Shown here: positions 40,951 through 41,128 of the stretch, one piece after another | Layout of the letters: each line of letters begins with the position of its first letter | Position numbering within the stretch: the stretch's first letter is position 1 | From: Escherichia phage ECO104 4-5-2 | DNA: 43,051 nucleotides | Reading direction: 5' to 3' (one strand) | Sequence record: OR844702 | Position numbers and translations under genes: made by a program | Notes under the pieces: generated by a model | Told to the model about the DNA's origin: nothing | The model's input: the letters and a program-made list of their open reading frames with translations, nothing else | Databases searched by the model: none

Positions 40951-41128
40951 CTGAAGGTAACGATGATAGCCAAGACGTTACAGCCTACAGGGAATCTGTG
41001 AACGCCGTCCGGTCCGCTCCGGCCTCTGCATCGAGGGAAAGCATGAGAAGCTAAGAGACAAAAGCTTCGCTAAGTGACTACTTAGTTAAGCGTCGTACAG
41101 TACGGCGCAGAATTAAGAGGTTAAAGAA
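40951..41128 (+). promoter_or_regulatory. Conserved structured RNA leader element, copy B (of 3)
   Basis: H1 40957-40981 (GTAACG/CGTTAC), H2 41023-41036, H3 41047-41068 (GAAGC/GCTTC), H4 41070-41085, H5 41090-41108. Ends in the SD attaagagg before ATG 41129. Confidence 0.5.

Follow-up and report, generated by a model that had tools for sequence, protein, structure and literature searches.

We identified a structured RNA leader element of ~190 nt that occurs three times in the genome of Escherichia phage ECO104 4-5-2 (sequence record OR844702; the whole 43,051-nucleotide stretch analyzed is called the window below). Each copy lies directly downstream of a sigma-70-type promoter and carries a pseudoknotted 5′ domain followed by a 3′ module in which two helices compete for the same strand. 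The copy that is our main subject, copy b, was first picked out at 40951-41128 in an original prediction made from the sequence alone, as a non-coding structured leader behind a sigma-70-type promoter and ending at a Shine-Dalgarno (SD) sequence, and this description is supported. The reading that we favor, with a probability of about 40%, is that the element is a cis-acting non-coding switch leader that is read by a phage factor and that resembles the leader of the lambda N gene. Cis-regulatory leader RNAs are already known as a general kind; the fold, the interchangeable modules, the agreement of module type within genomes and the protein partner appear to be undescribed. The family is absent from Rfam 15, from GenBank annotation and from the openly searchable literature (subscription-only papers lay outside the search).

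The leader element follows sigma-70-type promoters

There are a total of three copies of the element in the window (a, 39111-39287; b, 40944-41120; c, 5657-5833), one more than the two first recognized, and they are ~75% identical in pairwise comparison. Against the covariance model R1 the copies score 192.8 bits (a), 187.8 bits (b, matched over 40944-41120 with an E-value of 3.6e-55) and 190.2 bits (c), and the leader of copy b has a folding z-score of −2.96. The element is thereby confirmed as real, well past chance expectation. All features given here are on the plus strand, which holds all genes of the window. The phage is kin to the Escherichia phages PAS7 and P64441 (Autographiviridae, Slopekvirinae), with an RNA polymerase that is ~85% identical; other related loci are denoted by L numbers.

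The promoter proposed for copy b at 40860-40888 (TTGACG-17-TATAGT) is borne out, with 10 of 12 matches to the consensus and a predicted transcription start at ~40895. It ties for the best score in 37000-43051 with a site that precedes copy a, and the promoters directly upstream of all three copies are among the best consensus matches of the region. The same layout, promoter then element, is found at copies a and c and in relatives. Copy a (39060-39294) has its promoter at 39060-39088 and is followed by a 33-aa hydrophobic open reading frame (ORF) from 39295. Copy c (5608-5841) has a promoter at 5608-5637 and a second one upstream at 5493-5521, and is followed by an ORF from 5842.

The transcript of copy b begins with a 5′-terminal hairpin (40897-40931) that is present in both the minimum free energy and the centroid structures, and whose 10-bp stem pairs CCGGGAGGCG at 40897-40906 with CGCCUCCCGG at 40922-40931. 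A separate hairpin had been noted here from about 40909; it exists, with a start ~10 nt away from that position. At this 5′-terminal position hairpins are found in b copies only, those of other b copies differing in sequence, and they probably shield the 5′ end. A conserved SD-like stretch, GAAAGGAGAAGUU (40932-40944, alignment columns 5-16), then precedes the folded domain. The start first given for the element, 40951, was too late by ~7-19 nt, as it left out GAAAGGAGAAGUU, which is conserved and begins at 40932, and one side of helix P1, the 5′ strand at 40945-40948; its end at the SD was right. The SD of copy b is GAGG at 41117-41120 and the AUG lies at 41129.

Two side observations concern the sequence around these promoters. 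An identical 36-nt promoter sequence is present at 38734-38769 and at 39051-39086, flanking a 78-aa ORF (38814-39050); no structured leader accompanies the first copy, and it seems that a gene cassette was inserted here and the promoter duplicated in the process. After a Rha-family gene comes a 41-aa ORF (40820-40945), which has a good SD and reads through the copy b promoter and 5′ hairpin. In relatives its counterpart is a gene of 55 aa that stops short of the promoter (PAS7 2781-2948, L059 9560-9727), and the 41-aa ORF looks like a frame-shifted remnant.

Eight covarying helices define the fold

The structure was derived from 13 sequences of type 1, the type to which the window copies belong, with extra copies taken from IMG/VR and from Logan/ENA contigs that were reached via the neighboring protein. 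The 13 sequences share eight helices, including a pseudoknot, with a total of 40 pairs. In these, 97.7% of cells are paired and 24 of the 40 pairs show compensatory changes, as compared to 30-41% of cells paired in shifted-partner controls. In an earlier set of six sequences there were 33 pairs, 16 of them compensatory; 97.5% of cells were paired, against ~40% with shifted partners.

The type-1 5′ module (40945-40986) is formed by P1 (40945-40948/40983-40986) and P2 (40957-40962/40976-40981), with the conserved loop GAUAGCCAAGA and a bulge GCUGAAG. Four of the six P2 pairs are compensatory and the outer pair of P1 covaries from A:U to U:A. In the central domain (40987-41042) a junction (..GGA..UGAACG) leads into P3 (41009-41012/41019-41022) and P4 (41023-41026/41033-41036), and the P3 loop (41016-41018) forms a pseudoknot with 41040-41042. 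All three pseudoknot pairs covary, the triplets found being UGC:GCA, GCU:AGC, CGC:GCG, GUC:GAC, CCC:GGG and CCA:UGG. A conserved AUGAG is followed by P5 (41047-41052/41063-41068; with the motif, 41043-41068), which has the conserved loop AAGAGACAAA and compensatory changes in five of its six pairs.

We found no Rfam 15 match for the element: a gathering-threshold scan of the whole window returned only two group I introns elsewhere, and a permissive scan (E up to 10) of 40850-41200 gave only a chance match to a snoRNA (E 1.5). The corresponding stretch of PAS7 is unannotated. When the leader was compared by BLAST with 5,426 E. coli genomes, nothing similar was found, and therefore no host RNA is being copied. 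An exact-pattern scan of IMG/VR with AAGAGACAAAN6GCTAAG yielded chance matches in coding DNA only, and type-specific IMG/VR patterns recovered three real loci (L046, L047, L052) amid chance matches. The pattern GCTAAGN{4,20}CTTAGTTAAG proved too loose for JGI metagenomes, with 120 matching stretches and no true member among the 80 listed, which were screened with R1. Three leads were set aside. A weak R1 match at window 11370-11500 (13.9 bits) sits in coding sequence, the Rha/antirepressor protein is promiscuous as a marker for related loci and pulled in unrelated prophages, and a resemblance to the hammerhead (CUGAAG, AUGAG-hairpin-CGCUAAG) involves core positions that are not kept between copies and finds no Rfam match.

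The 3′ module has two mutually exclusive states

Contiguous with P5 is the P6 hairpin (41069-41086), in which GCUAAGU pairs with ACUUAGU (41069-41075/41080-41086; 7 pairs, 100% paired) and which we propose as the open state of a switch. The alternative is a long hairpin (41075-41123) made of an extended P7, in which 41075-41079 and 41081-41087 pair with 41111-41117 and 41119-41123, and a P8 cap (41090-41098/41100-41108). The strand CUUAGU(U) is shared: with its upstream partner GCUAAG it forms P6 and with its downstream partner AAUUAAG it forms P7. Extended P7 excludes P6 and encloses the SD in copy b, and both helices covary, in line with the mutually exclusive pair acting on an SD that is expected of a riboswitch. 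The strands common to P6 and P7 are the most conserved sequence across the types, which fits the expectation for a switch.

Support for the two helices comes from several changes. The closing pair of P6 occurs as four pair types, including a G:C to C:G change in a variant lineage, and in favor of P7 there is a matched U/A insertion in copy a of P64441. The combination CUAAC/GUUAG/UUAAC of the variant lineage is compatible with P6 and P7 alike. The P7 extension adds 5-6 further pairs with the sequence just 3′, which is the SD in most copies; 4-6 of the 6 positions pair in 19 of 20 copies, in spite of differing sequences. Five of six P8 pairs are compensatory. Together P7 and P8 make an irregular hairpin of ~21-23 bp with a conserved 2x2 AA/AG internal loop, and the P7 state is favored over P6 in 11 of 13 copies, by 0.4-12.5 kcal/mol (4.1 kcal/mol in copy b).

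Perhaps the long hairpin serves RNase III processing and transcript stability: it would be cut, detaching the leader and freeing the ribosome-binding region, with the transcript protected by the folded domain and the 5′ hairpin. RNase III cleaves T7 early transcripts at R0.3 and other sites, and the spacer between nutL and N in lambda contains an RNase III site, so that both provide precedents. The length of the irregular hairpin, its conserved internal loop, its position directly upstream of the start codon and the extra 5′-terminal hairpin of b copies agree with such a role. We consider it quite improbable as the explanation of the element, as it does not account for a complex, pseudoknotted 5′ domain that varies by type, for the agreement of type within genomes described below or for the covariation in the competing helix P6.

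5′ modules are interchangeable and agree in type within genomes

As well as type 1, we found two other types of 5′ module. Type 2 is present in PAS7, P64441 and four metagenomic relatives, each with three leaders at the same genomic positions. Its 5′ module consists of a hairpin (H1) and a helix S2 with a predicted pseudoknot; 10 of 10 variable helix pairs covary and the CCC:GGG stem of the pseudoknot is invariant. The type-1 and type-2 modules are different folds, each with its own covariation. Type 3, also pseudoknotted, lies behind early promoters in Koutsourovirus (phiKDA1, KKP 3828), Bucovirus, Cronobacter phage Peggy and Klebsiella phage KP34, and the equivalent promoter of KP34 is annotated in GenBank. 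By inspection, the P4 hairpin is present in all three types. The UGARCG and AUGAG junction motifs and the 3′ module are common to type 1, type 2 (a and c copies) and phiKDA1; the leaders of Peggy, Buco and KP34 are without these motifs and the 3′ module and give no R1 match.

Among the visible copies of 11 PAS7-like genomes, five genomes have type 1 only, six have type 2 only and none is mixed. For the helicase encoded between copies b and c, the window (type 1) and L061 (type 2) share 95.8% identity, and L059 (type 1) and L064 (type 2) share 95.0%. The helicase gene and the variants of the 3′ module assort independently of the 5′ type, and therefore the agreement in type is not simple clade structure.

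The compact multi-helix fold, the pseudoknot, the conserved junction bases (UGAACG, AUGAG, GGA) and the textbook mutually exclusive helix pair downstream would suit a small-molecule riboswitch with the 5′ domain as aptamer and P6/P7 as expression platform. This is very unlikely. A riboswitch keeps one conserved aptamer core, and here types 1, 2 and 3 replace each other, with at least three differently folded 5′ modules at the same position in close relatives. The downstream genes share no common metabolic theme, and no Rfam riboswitch is matched.

Less likely still is that the product acts in trans, as an abundant small RNA that is released and sponges or mimics a host factor (CsrA, Hfq, a nuclease or a defense protein). 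Three strong promoters would supply much RNA early in infection, several ANGGA-like motifs are present (AAGGAG, ACAAGGAAG, GAGGGAA), and non-coding RNA (ncRNA) candidates derived from 5′ untranslated regions (UTRs) have been described in the phiKMV-like phage LUZ19 (PMC10914365). However, no terminator follows the element, so that release would require processing; modules of types 2 and 3 do not conserve the motifs; and the E. coli genomes contain nothing similar to mimic. The GGA motifs were also considered as CsrA sites, are not conserved outside type 1, and are kept in that capacity as a minor rival only.

A small basic protein splits by leader type

The SD and AUG of the copy b leader are used by a 47-aa basic ORF (41129-41272), whose only family match is a weak one to a PHROG (E 0.0027) and which has no relative in protein databases besides itself. 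The ORF is missing from L052, L059, L063 and L187, in which the same SD and AUG directly start the gene of a small basic protein. The 47-aa ORF had been taken as a gene translationally coupled to a 140-aa basic protein. The open frame exists, and its stop codon and the following start share bases (UGAUG, 41270-41274). The frame is an orphan insertion whose gene status is uncertain, and the start of the downstream protein is probably the ATG at 41272, giving 139 aa, and not 41269, because its homologues begin MKATR. The conserved partner of copy b is this 139-aa protein.

The small basic protein (41272-41691, 139 aa, isoelectric point 9.9) belongs to phrog_9286, a family of unknown function that is its sole family match, with no sequence match in Pfam, NCBIfam or PDB. 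Its gene lies directly behind the leader in Koutsourovirus KKP 3828 and after one small ORF in phiKDA1. In type-1 genomes, including the distant L060 and L062 lineage, the protein has an N-terminal extension of 32 aa (total length 139 or 137 aa), and in type-2 genomes it is 108 aa long. It is the only ORF that splits by type among the early-region ORFs compared, a comparison limited to the covered early region, as most loci do not extend to genes beyond it.

The overlapping 65-aa ORF is an artefact

A 65-aa ORF (40857-41054) overlaps the promoter, the 5′ hairpin and the element of copy b, and had been judged an artefact of the non-coding sequence. We agree. Its start codon, a GTG, lies within the −35 hexamer, ahead of the point at which transcription is predicted to begin. 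The equivalent frame contains at least one stop in 11 of the 12 other type-1 copies, within the first 20 codons in seven of them, and only the frame of L59_c is open to ~codon 50. Among orthologous b copies, stops occur at codons 8, 12 and 17 in L052, codon 3 in L060 and codon 19 in L063. The substitutions between copies are compensatory helix changes of the kind seen in RNA and are not codon-like.

The check for homologues and coding-type conservation that the original prediction had called for was run, and neither Pfam nor PHROG gave a match to the ORF. Only two ORFs turned up among 5.8 billion proteins searched (58 and 71 aa), on contigs of ≤1 kb and with different ends; the 58-aa ORF is collinear with the window ORF to the same stop, and the C-terminal half of the 71-aa ORF is unrelated. 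The frame is open in copy b, and these two similar ORFs have been called on short contigs; nevertheless, the start within the −35 hexamer, the broken frame in relatives, the missing family match, the RNA-type substitutions and the differing lengths of the database ORFs effectively refute the idea that the region encodes a 65-aa protein.

A proposed switch-leader model

We propose that copy b is transcribed from a host-type promoter and opens an early transcription unit. The compact 5′ domain (P1-P5 with the loop-to-junction pseudoknot) would be the recognition module. In the bistable 3′ module, P6 would leave the ribosome-binding region open; the alternative, extended P7 with P8, is longer and usually more stable and would bury the SD or the enhancer region. 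A phage-encoded factor may read the 5′ domain and set the state of the 3′ module, with the outcome that the first gene of each unit is timed or autoregulated, and possibly that the transcript is processed by RNase III. The best candidate for this factor is the small basic protein behind copy b, whose own gene would be among those controlled.

Several points weigh against the switch leader. The SD lies 10-25 nt past P7 in 8 of 20 copies (the c-variant lineage, L060, L062 and phiKDA1), so that masking of the SD is common and not universal, and the 3′ module is wholly absent from type-2 b copies. The basic protein is without a recognizable RNA-binding domain, and its AlphaFold model has low confidence (mean predicted local distance difference test score, pLDDT, 62.7; predicted template modeling score, pTM, 0.30), with one long helix (residues 23-62) between low-confidence flanks. 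The N-terminal coding region of this protein adjoins copy b and its correlation with leader type may be partly linkage; therefore only copies a and c give unlinked evidence. The first genes behind the leaders differ between phages, which is easier to reconcile with action on whole transcription units than with translational control of particular genes. Finally, the fold, the competition between P6 and P7, the place close behind the promoter, the shared module type of each genome and the matching split in the N-terminus of the protein are shown; we infer the identity of the binder, the direction of control and the output, be it translation, cleavage or elongation.

The main alternative is processive antitermination. 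Here the leader, as it emerges, would bind the RNA polymerase of the host and allow read-through of terminators and Rho. It would do so unaided, as HK022 put does, or together with Nus factors and the basic protein, as lambda nut does with N. Wherever a host-type promoter carries the element, the two are adjacent regardless of the genes behind them, and the order of promoter, RNA site, structured spacer and small basic protein gene is that of lambda (PMC5725501). An exact rrn-type boxA (GCTCTTTAACAA, 37511-37522), conserved in relatives, comes immediately behind the first early promoter and makes elongation control of the Nus type possible. There is a conserved weak terminator-like hairpin after unit c (6235-6260) and a strong early-region terminator in the Koutsourovirus relatives, and the agreement of type within genomes would suit specificity pairs like those of N and boxB. 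We nevertheless regard antitermination as unlikely. The element itself is without boxA, the only exact boxA of the window being in the different leader named above. Terminator-like sites of the early region are at chance level, the element is ~2.5 times the size of put with a different architecture (PMC9378689), and the basic protein is unlike the N family and other Pfam domains. The conserved bistable module beside the ribosome-binding site is also left unexplained.

Not all of the alternatives exclude the switch leader, and some are partly compatible with it. One combined version is that the enterobacterial Slopekvirinae, which are virulent members of the T7 supergroup, have an N/nut-like system. 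Interchangeable leader modules would pair with matching N-terminal variants of phrog_9286 and reprogram the transcripts of host RNA polymerase by antitermination, by autoregulated translation via the bistable hairpin, or by both. We hold this version to be somewhat unlikely; if true, it would extend to these phages an RNA-protein specificity code for early gene control that was previously known only from lambdoid phages. Early transcription of T7 relatives by the host polymerase is usually described in terms of promoters and RNase III sites; here a large covarying RNA family follows three host-type promoters in a phage group used in therapy. Possible gains are a new RNA-protein regulatory pair, a function for a widespread early protein annotated as hypothetical and compact orthogonal control parts, and several false ORF calls are removed from the genomes of these phages.

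Genome setting and other conserved early sites

Bases 1-77 of the window recur exactly at 42975-43051, and the window is therefore a complete phage genome, that of a Slopekvirinae podophage of ~42,974 bp. This 77-bp identity is either a short direct repeat at the genome termini or an overlap left by the assembly of a circularly permuted contig; the annotated terminal repeats of the relatives phiKDA1 and KP34 are 216-271 bp long. The early region starts at ~37,100 and continues across the window ends. In the regions queried, the window is 100% identical to Salmonella phage S.Kent 1-2-1, an unannotated record. Fragments that are 100% identical have been deposited as Listeria phages (OR847174, OR848645 and others, 'Listeria phage LM 4-11-1 / 4-14-1'), and under Salmonella and several E. 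coli hosts. The occurrence of the same phage under many host names suggests a contaminant or carry-over in that sequencing project.

The two group I introns (Rfam RF00028) are at window 3356-4042 and 31551-31804, with scores of 51 and 65 bits. The first holds a 180-aa ORF (3468-4010) and interrupts the second DNA-polymerase gene (3099-3368 and 4097-5026), which is unsplit in PAS7. The second interrupts the large terminase gene (31046-31618 and 31900-33123).

Other sites of the early region are also conserved. The boxA at 37511-37522 (consensus GYTCTTTAANA) lies ~15 nt downstream of the first early promoter (37466-37494) and occupies the same place in L047, L052, L057 (Peggy), L059 and L062, which suggests that the first early unit recruits host Nus factors. 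The weak terminator-like hairpin at 6235-6260, GUAGCCCUGCGUAGGAAGGGUUUUAUUAU, comes after the first conserved gene of unit c, is kept in seven related phages and has a conserved TTGACTTC...GAAACT behind it. A second conserved leader, X (window 5525-5600), follows the promoter at 5493-5521, upstream of the copy c promoter, and contains CAUCAACGAGGCACGGAGCC, a CCGGAAACGG hairpin, AGUAGACG... and GAUAAG. Relatives of leader X occur after promoters in PAS7 (10225-10340), phiKDA1, KKP 3828, L062 and Buco, and in L062 and Peggy a boxA then follows. A 31-nt repeat, TTATATAATACATTYARCTAATRTGTGACAG, is present at 37571-37601 and 38214-38244 (90% identical), just upstream of genes starting at 37616 and 38238, and may be another promoter or regulatory site.

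Comparison with known systems

The HK022 put site is an RNA of ~70 nt with two stem-loops in a V shape and more than one copy per genome (PMC9378689). Like put, the slopekvirine element is a cis-acting structured RNA present in several copies just downstream of early sigma-70 promoters. In contrast to put, which needs no protein, the element is ~190 nt long, has eight helices, a pseudoknot and a bistable 3′ module beside the start codon, and shows no match to put in sequence or structure. Translational riboswitches and protein-responsive leaders likewise have a sensor domain followed by exclusive helices, the more stable of which covers the SD, but here the sensor is not conserved (three interchangeable folds) and the SD is unmasked in 8 of 20 copies.

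The RNase III signals of T7 (R0.3, R0.5, R1.1 and others) are irregular hairpins of ~20 bp or more with an internal loop, as are P7ext and P8 (41075-41123, 2x2 AA/AG), and both occur just upstream of a gene start in the host-polymerase early transcripts of a T7-supergroup phage. Those of T7 are simple hairpins without a folded domain or a competing helix, and cleavage is putative here. The ncRNAs derived from phage 5′ UTRs are also short, structured, conserved within a genus and located in the 5′ UTRs of transcription units, but they are defined by premature termination in transcript maps rather than by structure, and in different hosts.

The closest resemblance that we propose is to the lambda N leader, in which a structured spacer lies between nutL and N, and N both feeds back on the RNA site in several early units and inhibits its own translation (PMC5725501). 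The two differ in that the slopekvirine element is without boxA (GYTCTTTAANA) or boxB, has a recognition domain of ~100 nt with a pseudoknot in place of a 15-nt hairpin, and precedes a basic protein without sequence similarity to N, in a virulent T7 relative with its own RNA polymerase; the function of the element is predicted. The two share an early promoter for the host polymerase with an RNA recognition site behind it, a large structured region that reaches up to the ribosome-binding site, and a first gene that encodes a small, basic and largely unstructured protein. In both, the site and the specificity of the protein vary together between related phages, here as a correlation that may be partly linkage.

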